From UHGV virus genome UHGV-1848636: 14,337 bases of DNA. One strand, 5' to 3'. The position numbers and the translations under genes were made by a program. This DNA is from a virus. This document shows, one piece after another, positions 1 through 14,337 of the stretch (its first letter is position 1; every line of letters starts with the position of its first letter). The notes under the pieces were generated by a model that was not told the origin of the DNA, searched no databases, and saw only the letters and a program-made list of their open reading frames with translations.

Positions 1-457
1 TTATTTTATCAGAAGTTAATTATCACTCTGTTGCTATTCAGTACATCCCTGCAGGGTAAAGTCTTGTTTCGCCGGATATGAAGATGAAATATTGTTAGAA
101 GACAGTAGCTACCGGTTCCTGTAACCGAACGTTCATTTCTCGTTATTTTTCATGCTGGCCGGGCGCAGGTGCTTTGCATCTGTTGCCAGCCTTCTCCTGC
201 AGGCTTCAATAACCCATGCCGAAAAATTACCCGATCCCTTACGTTCAAGGGCAATATGGATTTGATTAATCATCTGGTTTGGGAAGCTTTATTTTTTGAT
301 GACATTGTGTTTTTCCGTGTTCAGTGCTGCTGATTTGTATTGTCTTAAGATGTCTTTACGTTAAGTTGACACAGATCAATTAATGCATGACTTGGACAAA
401 ATTGATTATTTGTCGTGGTTTTATGGTGTACGTGGGATGTGTGATGGTATTTATATA

Positions 458-476
458 AATGATAATTATTATCATT
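458..476. repeat. Near-perfect 19-bp palindrome (AATGATAAT-t-ATTATCATT) just upstream of cosQ
   Basis: Read directly: 9-bp inverted arms around a single central base. From memory, lambda has a palindrome of the same form (TGATAAT-c-ATTATCA) at the equivalent place in its right end. Confidence 0.5.
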
Positions 477-480
477 TATT

Positions 481-487
481 GGGTCCT
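481..487 (+). promoter_or_regulatory. cosQ: Putative cosQ (packaging termination element), GGGTCCT
   Basis: GGGTCCT lies about 24 bp upstream of the cohesive-end sequence, matching the position and (from memory) the sequence of lambda cosQ. Exact boundaries are uncertain. Confidence 0.5.
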
Positions 488-510
488 TTCCGGCGATCCG
501 GCAGGCTACG

Positions 511-522
511 GGGCGGCGACCT
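511..522 (+). other. cosN: cosN: 12-nt cohesive-end sequence GGGCGGCGACCT where terminase nicks
   Basis: Exact match to the lambda 12-nt cohesive end, followed by CGCGGGTTTTCGCTATTTATGAAAATTTTCCGG as at the lambda left end. The nick sites flank this segment. Confidence 0.9.
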
Positions 523-553
523 CGCGGGTTTTCGCTATTTATGAAAATTTTCC

Positions 554-690
554 GGGGAAAATCATGTCGGTACTTCTCGAACATAACTATTTGTTTTTTC
601 TAATATCGAATCCGTAAAAGGTCCGACATGAAAACGCCTAAAAAAGTCATTTTCGGGCACTTTCATGTCGGCCCCTGTATTTATTGTGAG
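554..690 (+). promoter_or_regulatory. cosB: cosB-like terminase small-subunit binding region, not lambda-type, with three copies of TCATGTCGG (direct, inverted, direct)
   Basis: Motif TCATGTCGG at 562-570 (+), its reverse complement CCGACATGA at 623-631, and TCATGTCGG again at 663-671. An AT-rich spacer (about 575-620) sits between the first two copies. The region lies between cosN and the Nu1 start, as lambda R3-I1-R2-R1 does, but the sequence is not the lambda cosB I recall. Confidence 0.6.
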
Positions 691-698
691 ACTGTTTC

Positions 699-1218
699 AT
701 GAAGGTTAATAAAAAGAAACTTGCCGAAATTTTCAACGTGGATCCGCGAACGATTGAACGCTGGCAGTCTCAGGGACTCCCTTGTGTCTCCGGAGGTGGT
801 AAGGGCGTTGAATCTGTATTTGATACCGCCATGGCAATTCAGTGGTATGCGCAGAGGGAAGCTGATATCGAAAATGAAAAACTCCGTAAAGAGGTTGAGG
901 ATTACAGGGCTGCCAGTGAGGCAGATCTCCAGCCTGGGACTATTGAGTACGAACGCCATCGACTTACGCGTGCGCAGGCCGACGCACAGGAGCTGAAGAA
1001 TGCCAGAGACTCCGCAGAGGTGGTGGAAACCGCATTCTGTACTTTCGTGCTGTCACGGATCGCAGGTGAAATTGCCAGTATTCTTGACGGGATCCCTCTC
1101 TCGGTACAGCGGCGTTTTCCGGAACTGGAAAACCGACATGTTGATTTCCTGAAACGGGATATCATCAAAGCCATGAACAAAGCAGCCGCGCTGGATGAAC
1201 TGATACCGGGGTTGCTGA

Positions 1219-1244
<26 letters not shown>
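699..1244 (+). CDS. nu1: Terminase small subunit (Nu1), 181 aa; N-terminal winged-HTH DNA-binding domain diverged from lambda, C-terminal part lambda-like
   Basis: ATG at 699, 181 aa as in lambda Nu1, first gene after cos. Residues from about 70 onward ([58 protein letters not shown]...) match lambda Nu1 as I recall it; residues 1-70 are only partly similar. Confidence 0.93.
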
Positions 1245-4925
<3,681 letters not shown>

Positions 4926-4945
<20 letters not shown>

Positions 4946-6245
4946 TCTCCCGCATATTGCCAGCATGGCCTTTAATGAGCCGCTGATGCTTGAACCCGCC
5001 TATGCGCGGGTTTTCTTTTGTGCGCTTGCAGGCCAGCTTGGGATCAGCCGCCTGACGGATGCGGTGTCCGGCGACAGCCTGACTGCCCAGGAGGCACTCG
5101 CGACGCTGGCATTATCCGGTGATGATGACGGACCACGACAGGCCCGCAGTTATCAGGTCATGAACGGCATCGCCGTGCTGCCGGTGTCCGGCACGCTGGT
5201 CAGCCGGACGCGGGCGCTGCAGCCGTACTCGGGGATGACCGGTTACAACGGCATTATCGCCCGTCTGCAACAGGCTGCCAGCGACCCGATGGTGGACGGC
5301 ATTCTGCTCGATATGGACACACCGGGCGGGATGGTGGCGGGAGCATTTGACTGTGCTGACATCATCGCCCGTGTGCGAGACATAAAACCGGTATGGGCGC
5401 TGGCCAACGACATGAACTGCAGTGCAGGTCAGCTGCTTGCCAGCGCCGCCTCCCGGCGTCTGGTCACGCAGACCGCCCGGACAGGCTCCATCGGCGTCAT
5501 GATGGCTCACAGTAATTACGGTGCTGCCCTGGAGAAACAGGGCGTGGAAATCACGCTGATTTACAGCGGCAGCCATAAGGTGGATGGCAACCCCTACAGC
5601 CATCTACCGGGTGATGTCCGGGAAACACTGCAGTCCCGGATGGATGCAACCCGCTGGATGTTTGCGCAGAAGGTGTCGGCATATACCGGCCTGTCCGTGC
5701 AGGCTGTGCTGGATACCGAGGCTGCAGTGTACAGCGGTCAGGAGGCCATTGATGCCGGACTGGCTGATGAACTTGTCAACAGCACCGATGCGATCACCGT
5801 CATGCGTGATGCACTGGATGCACGTAAATCCCGTCTCTCAGGAGGGCGAATGACCAAAGAGACTCAATCAACAACTGTTTCAGCCACTGCTTCGCAGGCT
5901 GACGTTACTGGCGTGGTGCCAGCGATGGAGGGCGAAAACGCCAGCGCGGCGCAGCCGGACGTGAACGCGCAGATCACCGCTGCGGTTGCGGCAGAAAACA
6001 GCCGCATTATGGGGATCCTCAACTGTGAGGAGGCTCACGGACGCGAAGAACAGGCCCGCGTGCTGGCAGAAACCCCCGGTATGACCGTGGAAACGGCCCG
6101 CCGCATTCTGGCCGCAGCACCACAGAGTGCACAGGCGCGCAGTGATACTGCGCTGGATCGTCTGATGCAGGGGGCACCGGCACCGCTGGCTGCAGGTAAC
6201 CTGGCATCTGATGCCGTTAACGATTTGCTGAACACACCAGTGTAA
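4926..6245 (+). CDS. C: Head maturation protease / minor capsid protein gpC, 439 aa (S49/ClpP-like)
   Basis: GTG start at 4926 preceded by AGGAGGA (4914-4920); product VTAELRNLPHIASMAFNEPLMLEPAYARVFF... matches lambda gpC. The 484-aa ORF in the six-frame track is an upstream in-frame extension overlapping B and is not the real start. Confidence 0.9.
5640..6245 (+). CDS. Nu3: Scaffolding protein Nu3, translated from an in-frame internal start within C and sharing its stop
   Basis: In-frame ATG at 5640 (MDATRWMFAQKVSAYTGLSVQ...) sits at the same offset from the C start (714 nt) as in the lambda annotation I recall. No strong Shine-Dalgarno is visible upstream. Confidence 0.6.
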   Translation: MDATRWMFAQKVSAYTGLSVQAVLDTEAAVYSGQEAIDAGLADELVNSTDAITVMRDALDARKSRLSGGRMTKETQSTTVSATASQADVTGVVPAMEGENASAAQPDVNAQITAAVAAENSRIMGILNCEEAHGREEQARVLAETPGMTVETARRILAAAPQSAQARSDTALDRLMQGAPAPLAAGNLASDAVNDLLNTPV

Positions 6246-6254
6246 GGGATGTTT

Positions 6255-6587
6255 ATGACGAGCAAAGAAACCTTTACCCATTACCAGCCGCTGGGCAACA
6301 GTGACCCGGCTCATAGCGCAACTGCGCCCGGCGGATTGAGTGCGAAAGCGCCTGCAATGACCCCGCTGATGCTGGACACCTCCACCCGTAAGCTGGTTGC
6401 GTGGGATGGCACCACCGACGGTGCTGCCGTTGGCATTCTTGCGGTTGCTGCTGACCAGACCAGCACCACGCTGACGTTCTACAAGTCCGGCACGTTCCGT
6501 TATGAGGATGTACTCTGGCCGGAGGCTGCCAGCGACGAGACGAAAAAACGGACCGCGTTTGCCGGAACGGCAATCAGCATCGTTTAA
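6255..6587 (+). CDS. D: Capsid decoration protein gpD, 110 aa
   Basis: [20 protein letters not shown]... matches lambda gpD. The ATG at 6255 is preceded by AAGGGA; the in-frame ATG two codons upstream at 6249 is less likely. Confidence 0.9.
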
Positions 6588-6604
6588 CCTTACCCTTCAT
6601 CACT

Positions 6605-6630
6605 AAAGGCCGCCTGTGCGGCTTTTTTTT
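6605..6630 (+). terminator. Intrinsic-terminator-like hairpin plus T8 run between D and E
   Basis: GCCGC (6609-6613) pairs with GCGGC (6618-6622) across loop CTGT, extendable by A-U and G-U pairs, followed immediately by TTTTTTTT (6623-6630). Confidence 0.45.
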
Positions 6631-6643
6631 ACGGGATTTTTTT

Positions 6644-7669
6644 ATGTCGATGTACACAACCGCCCAGCTGCTGGCGGCAAATGAGCAGAAATTTAAGTTT
6701 GATCCGCTGTTTCTGCGTCTCTTTTTCCGTGAGAGCTATCCCTTCACCACGGAGAAAGTCTATCTCTCACAAATTCCGGGACTGGTAAACATGGCGCTGT
6801 ACGTTTCGCCGATTGTTTCCGGTGAGGTTATCCGTTCCCGTGGCGGCTCCACCTCTGAATTTACGCCGGGATATGTCAAGCCGAAGCATGAGGTGAATCC
6901 GCAGATGACCCTGCGTCGCCTGCCGGATGAAGATCCGCAGAATCTGGCGGACCCGGCTTACCGCCGCCGTCGCATCATCATGCAGAACATGCGTGACGAA
7001 GAGCTGGCCATTGCTCAGGTCGAAGAGATGCAGGCAGTTTCTGCCGTGCTTAAGGGCAAATACACCATGACCGGTGAAGCCTTTGATCCGGTTGAGGTGG
7101 ATATGGGCCGCAGTGCGGCGAACAACATCACACAGTCCGGCGGCACGGAGTGGAGCAAGCGTGACAAGTCCACGTATGACCCGACCGACGATATCGAAGC
7201 CTACGCGCTGAACGCCAGTGGCGTGGTGAATATCATTGTGTTTGACCCGAAAGGCTGGGCGCTGTTCCGTTCCTTCAAAGCCGTCAGGGAGAAGCTGGAT
7301 ACCCGTCGCGGCTCTCATTCCGAACTGGAGACAGCGGTAAAAGACCTGGGCAAAGCGGTGTCTTATAAGGGAATGTATGGCGATGTGGCCATCGTCGTGT
7401 ATTCCGGACAGTACGTGGAAAACGGCGTCAAAAAGAACTTCCTGCCGGACAACACGATGGTGCTGGGTAACACTCAGGCACGCGGTCTGCGCACCTATGG
7501 CTGCATTCAGGATGCGGATGCACAGCGCGAAGGCATTAACGCCTCTGCCCGTTACCCGAAAAACTGGGTGACCACCGGCGATCCGGCGCGTGAGTTCACC
7601 ATGATTCAGTCAGCACCGCTGATGCTGCTGGCTGACCCTGATGAGTTCGTTTCCGTACAACTGGCGTAA
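6644..7669 (+). CDS. E: Major capsid protein gpE, 341 aa
   Basis: 341-aa ORF MSMYTTAQLLAANEQKFKFDPLFLRLFFRESYPFTTEKVYLSQ... is near-identical to recalled lambda gpE. Confidence 0.97.
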   Translation: MSMYTTAQLLAANEQKFKFDPLFLRLFFRESYPFTTEKVYLSQIPGLVNMALYVSPIVSGEVIRSRGGSTSEFTPGYVKPKHEVNPQMTLRRLPDEDPQNLADPAYRRRRIIMQNMRDEELAIAQVEEMQAVSAVLKGKYTMTGEAFDPVEVDMGRSAANNITQSGGTEWSKRDKSTYDPTDDIEAYALNASGVVNIIVFDPKGWALFRSFKAVREKLDTRRGSHSELETAVKDLGKAVSYKGMYGDVAIVVYSGQYVENGVKKNFLPDNTMVLGNTQARGLRTYGCIQDADAQREGINASARYPKNWVTTGDPAREFTMIQSAPLMLLADPDEFVSVQLA

Positions 7670-7672
7670 TCG

Positions 7673-7698
7673 TGGCCCTTCGGGGCCATTTTCTCTCT
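7673..7698 (+). terminator. Stem-loop with UUCG tetraloop and U-rich tail directly after the E stop codon
   Basis: TGGCCC (7673-7678) pairs with GGGCCA (7683-7688) across loop TTCG, followed by TTTTCTCTCT. It lies between E and the FI ribosome-binding site GGAGGAG (7701-7707). Confidence 0.4.
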
Positions 7699-7710
7699 GT
7701 GGAGGAGTTC

Positions 7711-8097
7711 ATGACGAAAGATGAACTGATTGCCCGTCTTCAGGAGCTGGGTGAGCAACTGAACCGTGATGTCAGCCTGACGGGAACGAAAGAAGAACTG
7801 GCGCTCCGTGTGGCAGAGCTGGAAGAGGAGCTTGATGACACTGCCGATCAGGATACCCCTATCAGCCCGGAAAATGCGCTGACCGGACATGAAAATGAGG
7901 TTGTATCAGCGCAGCCGGATACCGTGACTGATACGGCTGATCTGGTCACGGTTGTGGCACTGGTGACGCTGCATACTGATGCACTTCACGCCACGCGGGA
8001 TGACACTGTGGCATTTGTGCTGCCGGGAACGGCGTTCCGTGTCTCTGCCGGTGTGGCAGCCGAAATGACAGAACGCGGCCTGGCCAGAATGCAATAA
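7711..8097 (+). CDS. FI: gpFI, DNA-packaging accessory protein, 128 aa
   Basis: ATG at 7711 preceded by GGAGGAG; MTKDELIARLQELGEQLNRDVSLTGTKEELALRVAELEEEL... matches lambda gpFI. The upstream extension to 7672 in the ORF track overlaps the hairpin and lacks an RBS. Confidence 0.88.
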   Translation: MTKDELIARLQELGEQLNRDVSLTGTKEELALRVAELEEELDDTADQDTPISPENALTGHENEVVSAQPDTVTDTADLVTVVALVTLHTDALHATRDDTVAFVLPGTAFRVSAGVAAEMTERGLARMQ

Positions 8098-8108
8098 CGG
8101 GAGGCGCT

Positions 8109-8462
8109 GTGGCTGATTTCGATAACCTGTTCGATGCTGCCATTGCCCGCGCCGATGAAACGATACGCGGGTACATGGGAACGTCAGCCACCATGACATC
8201 CGGTGAGCAGTCCGGCGCAGTAATACGTGGTGTTTTTGATGACCCTGAAAATATCAGCTATGCCGGACAGGGCGTGCGCGTTGAAGGCTCCAGCCCGTCC
8301 CTGTTTGTCCGGACTGATGATGTGCGGCAGCTGCGGCGCGGCGACACGCTGAGCATCGGTGAGGAAAACTTCTGGATAGACCGGGTTTCGCCGGATGATG
8401 GTGGAAGCTGTCATCTCTGGCTTGGGCGGGGCGTACCGCCTGCCGTTAACCGTCGCCGCTGA
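8109..8462 (+). CDS. FII: gpFII head completion / head-tail connector protein, 117 aa
   Basis: GTG start at 8109 preceded by GGAGG (8099-8103); (M)ADFDNLFDAAIARADETIRGYMG... matches lambda gpFII in length and sequence. Confidence 0.9.
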   Translation: MADFDNLFDAAIARADETIRGYMGTSATMTSGEQSGAVIRGVFDDPENISYAGQGVRVEGSSPSLFVRTDDVRQLRRGDTLSIGEENFWIDRVSPDDGGSCHLWLGRGVPPAVNRRR

Positions 8463-8473
8463 AAGGGGGATGT

Positions 8474-9052
8474 ATGGCCATAAAAGGTCTTGAGCAGGCC
8501 GTTGAAAACCTCAGCCGTATCAGCAGAACGGCGGTGCCCGGTGCCGCCGCAATGGCCATTAACCGCGTTGCTTCATCCGCGATATCGCAGTCGGCGTCAC
8601 AGGTTGCCCGTGAGACAAAGGTACGCCGGAAACTGGTAAAGGAAAGGGCCAGGCTGAAAAGGGCCACGGTCAAAAATCCGCAGGCCAGAATCAAGGTTAA
8701 CCGGGGGGATTTGCCCGTAATCAAGCTGGGGAATGCGCGGGTTGTCCTGTCCCGCCGCAGGCGTCGTAAAAAGGGGCAGCGTTCATCCCTGAAAGGTGGC
8801 GGCAGCGTGCTTGTGGTGGGAAACCGTCGTATTCCCGGCGCGTTTATTCAGCAACTGAAAAATGGCCGGTGGCATGTTATGCAGCGTGTGGCCGGGAAAA
8901 ACCGTTACCCCATTGATGTAGTGAAAATCCCGATGGCGGTGCCGCTGACCACGGCGTTTAAACAGAATATTGAACGGATACGGCGTGAACGTCTTCCGAA
9001 AGAGCTGGGCTATGCGCTGCAGCATCAACTGAGAATGGTAATAAAGCGATGA
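8474..9052 (+). CDS. Z: Tail completion protein gpZ, 192 aa
   Basis: 192-aa ORF preceded by AGGGGGA, in the lambda gpZ position with matching length and sequence. Confidence 0.9.
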   Translation: MAIKGLEQAVENLSRISRTAVPGAAAMAINRVASSAISQSASQVARETKVRRKLVKERARLKRATVKNPQARIKVNRGDLPVIKLGNARVVLSRRRRRKKGQRSSLKGGGSVLVVGNRRIPGAFIQQLKNGRWHVMQRVAGKNRYPIDVVKIPMAVPLTTAFKQNIERIRRERLPKELGYALQHQLRMVIKR

Positions 9053-9444
9053 AACATACTGAACTCCGTGCAGCCGTACTGGATGCACTGGAGAAGCATG
9101 ACACCGGGGCGACGCTTTTTGATGGTCGCCCCGCTGTTTTTGATGAGGAAGATTTTCCGGCAATTGCCGTTTATCTCACCGGCGCTGAATACACGGGCGA
9201 AGAGCTGGACAGCGATACCTGGCAGGCGGAGCTGCATATTGAAGTTTTCCTGCCTGCTCAGGTGCCGGATTCAGAGCTGGATTCGTGGATGGAGTCCCGG
9301 ATTTATCCGGTGATGAGCGATATCCCGGCACTGTCAGATTTGATCACCAGTATGGTGGCCAGTGGCTATGACTACCGGCGCGACGATGATGCGGGCCTGT
9401 GGAGTTCAGCCGATCTGACTTATGTCATTACCTATGAAATGTGA
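9049..9444 (+). CDS. U: Tail terminator protein gpU, 131 aa
   Basis: 131-aa [34 protein letters not shown]... matches lambda gpU. Its ATG overlaps the Z stop (ATGA). Confidence 0.92.
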
Positions 9445-9451
9445 GGACGCT

Positions 9452-10192
9452 ATGCCTGTACCAAATCCTACAATGCCGGTGAAAGGTGCCGGGACCACCC
9501 TGTGGGTTTATAAGGGGAGCGGTGACCCTTATGCGAACCCGCTTTCAGACGTTGACTGGTCGCGTCTGGCAAAAGTTAAAGACCTGACGCCCGGCGAACT
9601 GACCGCTGAGTCCTATGACGACAGCTATCTCGATGATGAAGATGCAGACTGGACTGCGACCGGGCAGGGGCAGAAATCTGCCGGAGATACCAGCTTCACG
9701 CTGGCGTGGATGCCCGGAGAGCAGGGGCAGCAGGCGCTGCTGGCGTGGTTTAATGAAGGTGATACCCGTGCCTATAAAATCCGCTTCCCGAACGGCACGG
9801 TCGATGTGTTCCGTGGCTGGGTCAGCAGTATCGGTAAGGCGGTGACGGCGAAGGAAGTGATTACCCGCACGGTGAAGGTCACCAATGTGGGACGTCCGTC
9901 GATGGCAGAAGATCGCAGCACGGTGACGGCGACAACCGGCATGACGGTGACACCCGCCAGTGCTTCCGTAGTGAAAGGGCAGAGCACCACGCTGACCGTG
10001 GCATTCCAGCCGGAGGGCGCAACCGACAAGAGCTTCCGTGCGGTGTCTGCGGATAAAACAAAAGCCACCGTGTCGGTCAGTGGTATGACCATCACCGTGA
10101 AAGGTGTTGCTGCAGGCAAGGTCAACATTCCGGTCGTATCCGGTAATGGTGAGTTTGCTGCGGTTGCAGAAATCAACGTCACCGCCAGTTAA
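9452..10192 (+). CDS. V: Major tail tube protein gpV, 246 aa, with C-terminal Ig-like (Big_2-type) domain
   Basis: ATG at 9452 preceded by GAGGA; [31 protein letters not shown]... matches lambda gpV. The C-terminal ~90 residues ([33 protein letters not shown]...VTAS) are Thr/Val-rich beta-strand sequence typical of a Big_2 domain. Confidence 0.93.
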
Positions 10193-10207
10193 TCCGGAGA
10201 GTCAGCG

Positions 10208-10630
10208 ATGTTCCTGAAAACCGAATCATTTGAACATAACGGTGTGACCGTCACGCTTTCTGAACTGTCAGCCCTGCAGCGTATTGAGCATCTCGCCCTG
10301 ATGAAACGGCAGGCAGAACAGGCGGAGTCAGACAGCAACCGGAAGTTTACTGTGGAAGACGCCATCAGAACCGGCGCGTTTCTGGTGGCGATGTCCCTGT
10401 GGCATAACCATCCGAAGAAGACAAAGCTGCCTTCCATGAATGAAGCCGTTAAACAGATTGAGCAGGAAGTGCTTACCACCTGGCCCACAGAGGCAATTTC
10501 TCATGCTGAAAACGTGGTGTACCGGCTGTCCGGTATGTATGAGTTTGTGGTGAATGATGCCCCTGAACAGGCAGAGGACGCCGGGCCTGCAGAGCCTGTT
10601 TCTGCGGGAAAGTGTTCGACGGTGAGCTGA
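10208..10630 (+). CDS. G: Tail assembly chaperone gpG, 140 aa (zero-frame product)
   Basis: 140-aa ORF MFLKTESFEHNGVTVTLSELSALQRIEHL... matches lambda gpG. It contains the slippery heptamer GGGAAAG 18 nt before its stop. Confidence 0.92.
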   Translation: MFLKTESFEHNGVTVTLSELSALQRIEHLALMKRQAEQAESDSNRKFTVEDAIRTGAFLVAMSLWHNHPKKTKLPSMNEAVKQIEQEVLTTWPTEAISHAENVVYRLSGMYEFVVNDAPEQAEDAGPAEPVSAGKCSTVS

Positions 10631-11046
10631 GTTTTGCCCTGAAACTGGCGCGCGAGATGGGGCGACCCGACTGGCGTGCCATGCTTGCCGGGATGTCATC
10701 CACGGAGTATGCCGACTGGCACCGCTTTTACAGTACCCATTATTTTCATGATGTTCTGCTGGATATGCACTTTTCCGGGCTGACGTACACCGTACTCAGC
10801 CTGTTTTTCAGCGATCCGGATATGCATCCGCTGGATTTCAGTCTGCTGAACCGGCGCGAGGCTGACGAAGAGCCTGAAGATGTTGTGCTGATGCAGAAAG
10901 CGGCAGGGCTTGCCGGAGGTGTCCGCTTTGGCCCGGACGGGAATGAAGTTATCCCCGCTTCCCCGGATGTGGCGGACATGACGGAGGATGACGTAATGCT
11001 GATGACAGTATCAGAAGGGATCGCAGGAGGAGTCCGGTATGGCTGA
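10208..11046 (+). CDS. G-T: gpGT tail assembly chaperone fusion made by -1 programmed ribosomal frameshift (join 10208..10612, 10612..11046)
   Basis: Slippery site G_GGA_AAG at 10606-10612 is in the G frame. The -1 frame is open from that point to 11046 (T segment, VFDGELSFALKLAREMGRPDW...) and has no ATG or RBS of its own. The arrangement is the same as lambda G/GT. Confidence 0.85.
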
Positions 11047-13600
11047 ACCGGTAGGCGATCTGGTCGTTGATTTGAGTCTGGATGAGGCCAGATTTGACGA
11101 GCAGATGGCCAGAGTCAGGCGTCATTTTTCCGGTACGGAAAGTGATGCGAAAAAAACAGCGGCAGTCGTTGAACAGTCAATGAACCGGCAGGCGCTGGCT
11201 GCACAGAAAGCGGGGATTTCCGTCGGACAGTATAAAGCCGCCATGCGTATGCTTCCTGCACAGTTCACCGACGTGGCCACGCAGCTTGCAGGCGGGCAAA
11301 GTCCGTGGCTGATCCTGCTGCAACAGGGGGGGCAGGTTAAGGACTCCTTCGGCGGGATGATCCCCATGTTCAGGGGGCTTGCCGGTGCGATCACCCTGCC
11401 GATGGTCGGGGCCACCTCGCTAGCGGTGGCGACCGGTGCGCTGGCGTATGCCTGGTATCAGGGCAACTCAACCCTGTCCGATTTCAACAAAACGCTGGTC
11501 CTTTCCGGCAATCAGTCGGGTCTGACGGCAGATCGCATGCTGGTCCTGTCCAGAGCCGGGCAGGCGGCAGGGCTGACGTTTAACCAGACCAGCGAGTCAC
11601 TCAGCGCACTGGTTAAGGCGGGAGTAAGCGGTGAGGCTCAGATTGCATCCATCAGCCAGAGTGTGGCGCGTTTCTCCTCTGCATCCGGCGTGGAGGTGGA
11701 CAAGGTCGCTGAAGCCTTCGGGAAGCTGACCACAGACCCGACGTCAGGGCTGACAGCGATGGCACGCCAGTTCCATAACGTGACGGCGGAGCAGATTGCG
11801 TATGTTGCTCAGTTGCAGCGTTCCGGCGATGAAGCCGGGGCATTGCAGGCGGCGAACGAGGCCGCGACGAAAGGGTTTGATGACCAGACCCGCCGCCTGA
11901 AAGAGAACATGGGTACGCTGGAGACCTGGGCAGACAGGACAGTGCGGGCATTCAAATCCATGTGGGATGCGGTGCTGGATATTGGTCGTCCTGATACCGC
12001 GCAGGAGATGCTGATTAAGGCAGAGGCTGCGTTTAAGAAAGCGGACGACATCTGGAGTCTGCGCAAGGATGATTATTTTGTTAACGATGAAGCGCGGGCG
12101 CGTTACTGGGATGATCGTGAAAAGGCCCGTCTTGCGCTTGAAGCCGCGAGAAAGAAGGCTGAACAGCAGAGTCAACAGGACAAAAATGCGCAGCAGCAGA
12201 GCGATACTGAAGCGTCACGGCTGAAATATACCGAAGAGGCGCAGAAGGCTTACGAACGGCTGCAGACGCCGCTGGAGAAATATACCGCCCGTCAGGAAGA
12301 ACTGAACAAGGCACTGAAGGACGGGAAAATTCTGCAGGCAGATTACAACACGCTGATGGCGGCGGCGAAAAAGGACTATGAAGCGACGCTGAAAAAGCCG
12401 AAACAGTCCGGCGTGAAGGTGTCTGCGGGCGATCGTCAGGAAGACAGTGCTCATGCTGCCCTGCTGACGCTTCAGGCTGAACTCCGGACGCTGGAGAAGC
12501 ATGCCGGAGCAAATGAGAAAATCAGCCAGCAGCGCCGGGATTTGTGGAAGGCGGAAAATCAGTTCGCGGTACTGGAGGAGGCGGCACAACGTCGCCAGCT
12601 ATCCGCACAGGAGAAATCCCTGCTGGCGCATAAAGATGAGACGCTGGAGTACAAACGCCAGCTGGCTGCACTTGGCGATAAGGTCACGTATCAGGAGCAC
12701 CTGAACGCGCTGGCGCAGCAGGCGGATAAATTCGCACAGCAGCAACGGGCAAAACGGGCCGCCATTGAGGCGAAAAACCGGGGGCTGACTGACCGGCAGG
12801 CAGCGCGGGAAGCCACGGAACAGCGTCTGAAGGAACAGTATGGCGATAATCCGCTGGCGCTGAATAACGTCATGTCAGAGCAGAAAAAGACCTGGGCGGC
12901 TGAAGACCAGCTTCGCGGGAGCTGGATGGCAGGCCTCAAGTCCGGCTGGAGTGAGTGGGAAGAGAGCGCCACGGACAGTATGTCGCAGGTTAAAAGTGCA
13001 GCCACGCAGACCTTTGATGGTATTGCACAGAATATGGCGGCGATGCTGACCGGCAGTGAACAGAACTGGCGCAGCTTCACCCGCTCCGTGCTGTCCATGA
13101 TGACAGAAATTCTGCTTAAGCAGGCAATGGTGGGGATTGTCGGGAGTATCGGCAGCGCCATTGGCGGTGCTACCGGTGGCGGCGCATCAGCGTCAGGCGG
13201 TACAGCCATTCAGGCAGCTGCGGCGAAATTCCATTTTGCGACCGGAGGATTTACGGGAACCGGCGGCAAATATGAGCCAGCGGGGATTGTTCACCGTGGT
13301 GAGTTTGTCTTCACGAAGGAGGCAACCAGCCGGATTGGCGTGGGGAATCTCTACCGGCTGATGCGCGGCTATGCCACCGGTGGTTATGTCGGTACACCGG
13401 GCAGTCTGGCTGACAGCCGGTCGCAGGCGTCCGGGACGTTTGAGCAGAATAACCATGTGGTGATTAACAACGACGGCACGAACGGGCAGATAGGTCCGGC
13501 TGCTCTGAAGGCGGTGTATGACATGGCCCGCAAGGGTGCCCGTGATGAAATTCAGACACAGATGCGTGATGGTGGCCTGTTCTCCGGAGGTGGACGATGA
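11039..13600 (+). CDS. H: Tail tape measure protein gpH, 853 aa
   Basis: 853-aa ORF, the lambda gpH length, preceded by AGGAGG (11026-11031) and overlapping the T end by 8 nt. It has a charged, Ala/Gln/Lys-rich central region and a Gly-rich C-terminal segment (GSIGSAIGGATGGGASASGG...). Confidence 0.95.
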   Translation: MAEPVGDLVVDLSLDEARFDEQMARVRRHFSGTESDAKKTAAVVEQSMNRQALAAQKAGISVGQYKAAMRMLPAQFTDVATQLAGGQSPWLILLQQGGQVKDSFGGMIPMFRGLAGAITLPMVGATSLAVATGALAYAWYQGNSTLSDFNKTLVLSGNQSGLTADRMLVLSRAGQAAGLTFNQTSESLSALVKAGVSGEAQIASISQSVARFSSASGVEVDKVAEAFGKLTTDPTSGLTAMARQFHNVTAEQIAYVAQLQRSGDEAGALQAANEAATKGFDDQTRRLKENMGTLETWADRTVRAFKSMWDAVLDIGRPDTAQEMLIKAEAAFKKADDIWSLRKDDYFVNDEARARYWDDREKARLALEAARKKAEQQSQQDKNAQQQSDTEASRLKYTEEAQKAYERLQTPLEKYTARQEELNKALKDGKILQADYNTLMAAAKKDYEATLKKPKQSGVKVSAGDRQEDSAHAALLTLQAELRTLEKHAGANEKISQQRRDLWKAENQFAVLEEAAQRRQLSAQEKSLLAHKDETLEYKRQLAALGDKVTYQEHLNALAQQADKFAQQQRAKRAAIEAKNRGLTDRQAAREATEQRLKEQYGDNPLALNNVMSEQKKTWAAEDQLRGSWMAGLKSGWSEWEESATDSMSQVKSAATQTFDGIAQNMAAMLTGSEQNWRSFTRSVLSMMTEILLKQAMVGIVGSIGSAIGGATGGGASASGGTAIQAAAAKFHFATGGFTGTGGKYEPAGIVHRGEFVFTKEATSRIGVGNLYRLMRGYATGGYVGTPGSLADSRSQASGTFEQNNHVVINNDGTNGQIGPAALKAVYDMARKGARDEIQTQMRDGGLFSGGGR

Positions 13601-13926
13601 AAACCTTCCGCTGGAAAGTGAAACCCGGTATGGATGTGGCTTCGGCCCCTTCTGTAAGAAAGGTGCGCTTTGGTGATGGCTGTTCCCAGCGAGCGCCTGC
13701 CGGGCTGAATGCCAACCTGAAAACGTACAGCGTGACGCTTTCTGTCCCCCGTGAGGAGGCCACGGTACTGGAGTCGTTTCTGGAAGAGCACGGTGGCTGG
13801 AAATCCTTTCTGTGGACGCCGCCTTATGAGTGGCGGCAGATAAAGGTGACCTGCGCAAAATGGTCGTCGCGGGTCAGTATGCTGCGTGTTGAGTTCAGCG
13901 CAGAGTTTGAACAGGTGGTGAACTGA
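13597..13926 (+). CDS. M: Minor tail protein gpM, 109 aa
   Basis: 109-aa ORF MKTFRWKVKPGMDVASAPSVRKVRFGDGCSQRAP... matches lambda gpM. Its ATG overlaps the H stop (ATGA). Confidence 0.92.
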   Translation: MKTFRWKVKPGMDVASAPSVRKVRFGDGCSQRAPAGLNANLKTYSVTLSVPREEATVLESFLEEHGGWKSFLWTPPYEWRQIKVTCAKWSSRVSMLRVEFSAEFEQVVN

Positions 13927-14337
13927 TGCAGGATATCCGGCAGGAAACACTGAATGAATGCACCCGTGTGGAGCAGTCGGCCAGCGTGGTGCTCTGGGAA
14001 ATCGATCTGACAGAGGTCGGTGGAGAACGTTATTTTTTCTGTAATGAGCAGAACGAAAAAGGTGAGCCGGTCACCTGGCAGGGGCGACAGTATCAGCCGT
14101 ATCCCATTCAGGGGAGTGGTTTTGAACTGAATGGCAAAGGCACCAGTACGCGCCCCACGCTGACGGTTTCTAACCTGTACGGTATGGTCACCGGGATGGC
14201 GGAAGATCTGCAGAGTCTGGTCGGCGGAACGGTGGTCCGGCGTAAGGTTTACGCCCGTTTTCTGGATGCGGTGAACTTCGTCAACGGAAACAGCGACGCC
14301 GATCCGGAGCAGGAGGTGATCAGCCGCTGGCGCATCG
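13926..14337 (+). CDS. L: Minor tail protein gpL, 5' partial (runs off the window end)
   Basis: ATG at 13926 overlaps the M stop (TGATG). The reading frame is open to the window end and the translation MQDIRQETLNECTRVEQSASVVLWEIDLTEVGGERYFFCNEQNEKGEP... matches the lambda gpL N-terminus. Confidence 0.9.
   Translation, partial: MQDIRQETLNECTRVEQSASVVLWEIDLTEVGGERYFFCNEQNEKGEPVTWQGRQYQPYPIQGSGFELNGKGTSTRPTLTVSNLYGMVTGMAEDLQSLVGGTVVRRKVYARFLDAVNFVNGNSDADPEQEVISRWRI

Follow-up and report, generated by a model that had tools for sequence, protein, structure and literature searches.

The window (the whole stretch of DNA that was analysed, 14,337 bases of the viral genome UHGV-1848636) carries a cos region near its left end, followed by the genes for the small and large terminase subunits. 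The packaging termination subsite cosQ, GGGTCCT, is found at 481-487 on the + strand and equals the 7-base cosQ of phage 21 (OL657228, 42902-42908); lambda has the identical sequence at the same distance from the nick. The cosN region, mapped from the M81255 feature at 150-196, spans 494-540 (+) and includes the 12-base cohesive end GGGCGGCGACCT at 511-522, which is identical in lambda and phage 21. Over 503-542, identity is 97% to lambda and 93% to phage 21. An earlier note on this DNA had held that cosN and the putative cosQ match those of lambda, and for the cohesive end and the cosQ heptamer the match is complete. At 540-554 (+), alignment with the M81255 feature at 196-210 places I2, a putative IHF site by homology that is common to lambda and phage 21. 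The small terminase subunit gene, terS (699-1244, +), belongs to the Nu1/gp1 family (Pfam Phage_Nu1, E = 6.9e-91) and is a natural chimera of phage 21-like and lambda-like parts. It is followed by a lambda-like large subunit gene of the gpA type (1219-3144, +) containing the Pfam domains GpA_ATPase and GpA_nuclease. Identity between the window and lambda is 95.9% over 199-14335. Upstream of cos there is a small gene of the DUF3950 family (133-273, -), known from the annotation of the identical E. coli DCE7 prophage (locus 2654-2794), and a 'TonB family protein' gene is located further upstream, beyond the window.

Between cosN and terS, the 9-mer TCATGTCGG is present at 562-570 (+), 623-631 (-) and 663-671 (+), so that the coordinates and the direct, inverted, direct orientations reported for it earlier were exact. 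The window sequence from 547 reads ...TTTTCCGGGGAAAATCATGTCGGTACTT..., and the spacer between the first two copies (571-622) is 71% A+T compared with 44% window-wide, which bears out its earlier description as AT-rich. Occurrence of the 9-mer at similar frequency elsewhere in the genome had been named as an outcome that would speak against the earlier reading, and the count of further copies in the 14,337 bases is zero. By chance 0.15 copies are expected, and three or more copies arose in 1 of 200 dinucleotide-preserving shuffles. Because TCATGTCGG had been picked after the data were seen, a post hoc test was also run on 9-mers of any kind. Segments of 137 bases holding any 9-mer three times, on either strand, begin only at 535-562, which is the cosB site, and a triple 9-mer of any kind appeared in 18 of 20,000 mononucleotide shuffles of 554-690.

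Comparison with the cosB of phage 21 and of lambda

A BLASTN search with 470-760 as the query against 50,697 phage records matched three independent records of Escherichia phage 21 (M81255, X02501 and OL657228), each of them colinear with the window at ~86% identity. The features curated in M81255 are R4, cosN, I2, R3, I1, R2, R1 and I0, while those in OL657228 are the cohesive end, cosB R3, cosB I1 (IHF), cosB R2 (in the orientation opposite to R3 and R1) and cosB R1. The alignment to phage 21 cosB that had been proposed as a check succeeds, with all annotated R boxes and I1 falling in register.

R3 is the box AATCATGTCGGTACTT at 560-575 (+, core 562-570), the homologue of phage 21 R3 at 216-231 of M81255 and 50-65 of OL657228, and it matches the phage 21 sequence AATCGTGTCGGTACTT at 15 of 16 positions. 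R2 is inverted, reading TTTCATGTCGGACCTT on the - strand of 618-633 (core 623-631), and agrees with the R2 of phage 21 (M81255 273-288, OL657228 107-122) at all 16 positions. R1, TTTCATGTCGGCCCCT at 661-676 (+, core 663-671), shares 14 of 16 positions with its phage 21 counterpart TTTCATGTCGGGCCTT (M81255 316-331, OL657228 150-166). Counted in cos coordinates, R3 covers bp 50-65 and the terS ATG stands at bp 189, as it does in phage 21. In the window the R cores begin at bp 53, 113 and 154, compared with 53, 112 and 153 in phage 21 and with 53, 114 and 154 for the CGTTTCC cores of lambda. The segment has the position of a 21-type cosB, between cosN and the terS start with R3 ~50 bases from the left cohesive end, and it has the R3-I1-R2-R1 order with an inverted R2, in the register of the annotated phage 21 features. 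Its boxes are also of the phage 21 type, which is defined by the core C[A/G]TGTCGG with G at bp 56 and 59 of R3; in the window both bp 56 (position 566) and bp 59 (position 569) are in this phage 21 state. R3 bp 54 (position 564) is A here and G in phage 21, and as a result all three R cores in the window are identical (CATGTCGG). The same A is found in O157:H7, IdasGreatGrand, CEA224S and PhiR5_1, and the G in phage 21, Nissle and N61.

The A+T-rich spacer contains the IHF-like candidate AAACAAATAGTTA at 584-596 on the - strand (582-596 following M81255), which is the homologue of phage 21 I1, annotated at 74-86 of OL657228 and 238-252 of M81255. It has one mismatch to the IHF consensus WATCAANNNNTTR, but as consensus matches number 6 window-wide against 6.7 expected, a chance level, the assignment of I1 rests on positional homology. 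I1 is partly conserved among variants of the 21-type cosB.

The window segment and phage 21 cosB are alike in location, in the R3-I1-R2-R1 order, in the inversion of R2, in the CATGTCGG core and, to within 1 base, in spacing. They differ by ~14% divergence, concentrated chiefly in the R2-R1 spacer and downstream of R1, and by a one-base insertion in the window before R2. When divergent 21-type cosB sequences are aligned (phage 21, O157:H7, N61, Nissle, CEA224S and PhiR5_1), it is mainly the spacers that have taken substitutions, and the invariant columns concentrate in the R cores and in I1. Invariant cores and I1 with variable spacers would be the pattern expected of protein-binding sites. 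The cosB sequences of E. coli CEA224S and phage PhiR5_1 are ~75% identical and have altered R2 cores (CGACATC), and the corresponding TerS helices have T24 and D20 or N2. It is possible that these two stand between the phage 21 type and the lambda type, as intermediates or as additional specificity variants.

Compared with lambda, identity in 40-base windows across 563-700 is 45-65%. A search of both strands over 500-700 found no CGTTTCC, and the lambda boxes (AGGCGTTTCCGTTCTT etc.) are absent. The lambda box is CGTTTCC(T/G)T where the window has CATGTCGG, and lambda TerS has Q20 and E24 where the window protein has E20 and S24, so the locus lacks both the CGTTTCC core and the TerS residue pair by which a lambda-type cosB is recognised. 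The likenesses to lambda lie in architecture and register, in an R3-R2 spacer with an IHF site (putative in the window), and in an identical cosQ and 12-base cohesive end. The earlier note had called the segment unrelated to lambda cosB, and this has to be revised, as it is rather a diverged homologue in the same register (cores at 53/113/154 versus 53/114/154). Alignment of the segment to lambda cosB after all, which the note had set as an outcome against its own reading, did not come about. Its further proposal, that the lambda R3-I1-R2-R1 layout is reproduced with another recognition sequence, was correct, including the inversion of R2. Mutual discrimination between lambda and phage 21 is put at >1000-fold in the account of it given in PMC4669245. 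The suggestion of a distinct packaging-specificity class stands insofar as the site differs from lambda; it falls insofar as an undescribed class was meant, the site being of the phage 21 type.

N15 and Monarch also have a lambda-like cos, with R3 about equally far from cosN (PMC4669245); in R sequence and recognition helix, both are described as differing from lambda and from phage 21 (PMC4669245). Monarch has a complex cosB in which the R boxes again number three and are accompanied by an IHF site (PMC4669245). The simple cosB of N15 consists of a single critical R3 and a remote inverted rR2 inside terS (PMC4669245). A simple cosB of the N15 type would have the single critical R3 with no IHF site and no R2 or R1 upstream of terS; unlike this, the window has three boxes and an I1 homologue upstream of the gene. 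A fourth CATGTCGG at 1133-1140 (-), a 21-type core ~470 bases downstream of cosB, loosely recalls the rR2 of N15. It was considered as a remote R box of that kind and rejected because lambda has the same bases (cos bp 624), phage 21 does not, and the flanks depart from the R consensus. It overlaps an IHF-like match at 1134-1146 (-) in the lambda-derived part of terS and is probably due to chance.

We are highly confident that 560-676 is a phage 21-type cosB, the docking site of the small terminase for the start of packaging.

A chimeric small terminase and the borders of the mosaic

The TerS protein encoded at 699-1244 matches PF07471 (Phage_Nu1) over all profile positions, 1-164 of 164, with 302.6 bits against a cut-off of 30. 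Its N-terminal winged-HTH DNA-binding domain (residues 1-68) is identical to phage 21 gp1 at 60 of 68 positions and to lambda at 41 of 68. The relationship is reversed in residues 73-181, where 107 of 109 are identical to lambda Nu1 and 54 of 109 to phage 21. The recognition helix, bearing E20 and S24, lies within residues 8-29, a segment that is the same as in phage 21. The 54-residue chain of PDB 7LWR is phage 21 gp1 residues 1-54 and matches TerS with E = 2e-28; the lambda structures 6HN7 and 1J9I also match. A literature search for descriptions of PDB 7LWR, 7LXS and 7LW0 returned nothing relevant. Over the first 54 residues TerS has five substitutions relative to phage 21 (K7, V30, G32, G34 and V37), and four of these are within residues 30-37 (window positions 786-809), which read VSGGGKGV versus ASKGSKGI in phage 21. 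They flank Lys35, a wing residue that contacts the minor groove (PMC9026076). The GGGKG motif in this region of TerS is lambda-like, and N61, CEA224S and PhiR5_1 have the GGG/GGS form, in view of which phage 21 itself may be the odd member.

The 21-class material forms a specificity cassette at 555-917 (+), delimited by sliding identity and mismatch maps, within a head and tail region that is ~96% lambda-like. Mismatches to lambda begin at 556-558 and are dense until 917, with just three in 918-1000. In 40-base sliding windows from ~555 to ~870, identity is 70-97% to phage 21 and 45-78% to lambda, and from 921 onwards, in the interval examined, it is 88-100% to lambda save for a dip at 1221-1280. 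This dip covers the overlap of the terS and large subunit genes, where identity to lambda is 72-80% and the flanks are at 95-100%, and it touches the last TerS residue (D versus G) and the N-terminus of gpA. The stretch 875-917 (codons 59-73) fits both parents poorly, with ~10-19 mismatches to each per 43 bases. A recent cross of lambda with 21 is thereby made less likely than a junction of some age or a contribution from a third donor lineage. The 21-like part derives from a relative of phage 21, and not from phage 21 itself.

Phage 21 has a small subunit that is wholly 21-type and a large subunit that is also 21-type, whereas in the window the C-terminal half of the small subunit and the large subunit are lambda-type. 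In this respect the window resembles lambda-21 hy51, a hybrid made in the laboratory (Frackman, Siegele and Feiss 1985). As hy51 is presented in PMC4669245 and PMC9026076, it combines cosB-21 with a chimeric small subunit, phage 21 gene 1 having supplied the 5' half and Nu1 the 3' half. The same accounts have it as a viable 21-specific phage with lambda gpA and lambda heads, and as the standard 21-specific helper (PMC4669245; PMC9026076). Both hy51 and the window combine cosB-21 and a chimeric 21/lambda small subunit with a lambda large subunit. They differ in that hy51 came from laboratory crosses and its left-end segment is said to be ~600 bases, whereas the non-lambda segment of the window runs from cos bp 45 to ~407 with its junction at codons 58-74. 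Judged by its sequence, the module in the window is a natural counterpart of hy51.

Proposed working of the site

For cosB/TerS specificity, the textbook example is lambda and 21 (PMC4669245, PMC9026076). Under the accepted model, I1 is where IHF bends the DNA, and a TerS winged-HTH dimer docks on R3 and R2 across the bend (PMC9026076); the docked TerS then anchors TerL for accurate nicking at cosN (PMC9026076). The key contacts and clashes between lambda and 21 are placed by PMC4669245, in what it says of the pair, at R3 bp 56 and 59 and at TerS residues 20 and 24. Protein binding, IHF bending and packaging specificity at the window site are inferred from this published work on phage 21 and lambda. 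By analogy, the three CATGTCGG-centred boxes would act as R3 (560-575), inverted R2 (618-633) and R1 (661-676), and IHF would bind I1 (584-596) in the A+T-rich spacer and bend the DNA. The R boxes would be read by the TerS from 699-1244 through its phage 21 recognition helix, and the large subunit would in this way be anchored for an accurate nick at cosN (511-522). The lambda-type C-terminal half of TerS would pair with the lambda-type large subunit and the downstream head genes. The G at bp 56 and 59, together with the phage 21 helix, predicts 21 specificity, and the lambda-type C-terminal half would account, on the principle of hy51, for how TerS functions alongside gpA and head genes that are themselves lambda-type. 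If the 21 helix reads the boxes and the lambda half fits gpA, then cosB and the DNA-binding domain would make up one co-inherited cassette of ~360 bases.

A third, undescribed packaging specificity, in which the terminase would discriminate against both lambda and phage 21 DNA, could be read into the departures from phage 21. The cosB is just ~86% identical, bp 54 of R3 is changed along with 2 of the 16 positions of R1, and TerS has VSGGGKGV in place of ASKGSKGI at residues 30-37. We consider this very improbable. R2 is that of phage 21 over its whole length, its 8-base core included, as is the 8-base core of R1; bp 56 and 59 carry the phage 21 bases, TerS residues 8-29 with the recognition helix are unchanged, and the differences are located mostly in spacers. 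Even the change at R3 bp 54 makes R3 equal to the R2/R1 core of phage 21, leaving the recognition sequence the same. With cores and helix identical to those of phage 21, the small differences leave room just for changes in affinity. With A at R3 bp 54, affinity or fine specificity might not be quite that of phage 21.

It is still harder to credit that the R2/R1 dyad (615-679) serves as a hairpin in the late transcript or as an operator controlling the small terminase gene. The dyad is an inverted repeat with 30-base arms that are 77% complementary, and the RNA hairpin predicted on folding 555-705 covers 623-671 (-36.7 kcal/mol, z = -2.4, equalled by 3 of 200 shuffles). However, two inverted 16-base boxes pair automatically, which accounts for both the dyad and a modest hairpin, and neither a sigma-70-like promoter nor an intrinsic-terminator-like site was found in 300-900. 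An RNA or operator role also gives R3 and the IHF site no function, and the genetics of lambda and phage 21 assign the boxes to terminase binding (PMC4669245, PMC9026076). The dyad reaches past the 16-base boxes, and in phage 21 the extension pairs too, via other bases.

Defective members are numerous among the lambda-like prophages of E. coli, and the window, which is 100% identical to a prophage in E. coli DCE7, may itself be prophage-derived, but a chance repeat or a decayed remnant of a defective prophage can be set aside as the least credible reading, given three exact 9-mers against 0.15 expected in exactly the register of the phage 21 sites, head and tail reading frames that are all intact in the window and ~96% identical to lambda, the same module in a deposited phage genome, and boxes conserved across hundreds of genomes.

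Distribution and meaning of the cassette

The 21-type cosB is widespread. With a 161-base query (540-700) and at least 80% of it covered, it is found in ~1195 of 5426 complete E. coli genomes, and its carriers include O157:H7 strains, Nissle and 83972. The chimeric module, searched as an 821-base query (cosB, the chimeric gene and the gpA start) with at least 80% covered, is found in ~541 of the 5426. It is 100% identical in the E. coli DCE7 prophage (NZ_CP090611.1), where it lies downstream of holin, lysozyme and lysis genes, and 98.9% identical in the deposited phage IdasGreatGrand (PP925829). A prophage of O157:H7 strain E32511 has the same chimeric TerS at 99% identity, and the TerS of Nissle is identical to that of phage 21.

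These comparisons identify the site, at the level of sequence, as a cosB of the already-known phage 21 class, carried by a lambda-like prophage that is common in E. coli. Genetic and structural work on the cosB-TerS specificity pair of lambda and 21 goes back some forty years. Because the segment aligns to phage 21 cosB, the novelty implied earlier is gone, and a locus that is a close relative of the phage 21 site carries little weight as a discovery. The one thing that is mildly new is how common a natural small terminase of this 21/lambda make-up, the equivalent of the classic laboratory hybrid, is among E. coli prophages.

We tentatively propose, as an idea that has more against it than for it, that the cassette of cosB and the TerS DNA-binding domain (~360 bases) moves as a unit among lambda-like prophages, recombining repeatedly at the domain joint in codons 58-74, and that the chimera came to be present in roughly one in ten complete E. 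coli genomes because a switch of specificity spares lambda-like prophages resident in the same cell wasteful cross-packaging. The joint at codons 58-74 separates the DNA-binding domain from the oligomerisation and TerL-binding part. A population-level account of the cassette swap and of the 875-917 stretch may be unpublished.

The analysis has some practical value, in that cos subsites can be annotated correctly in E. coli prophages of a very common class, those of O157:H7 among them, and it predicts helper phages that would be able to mobilise such prophages or interfere with them. It also shows that the domain-swap chimera with which the functional domains of the small terminase were mapped in the laboratory has arisen in nature too.
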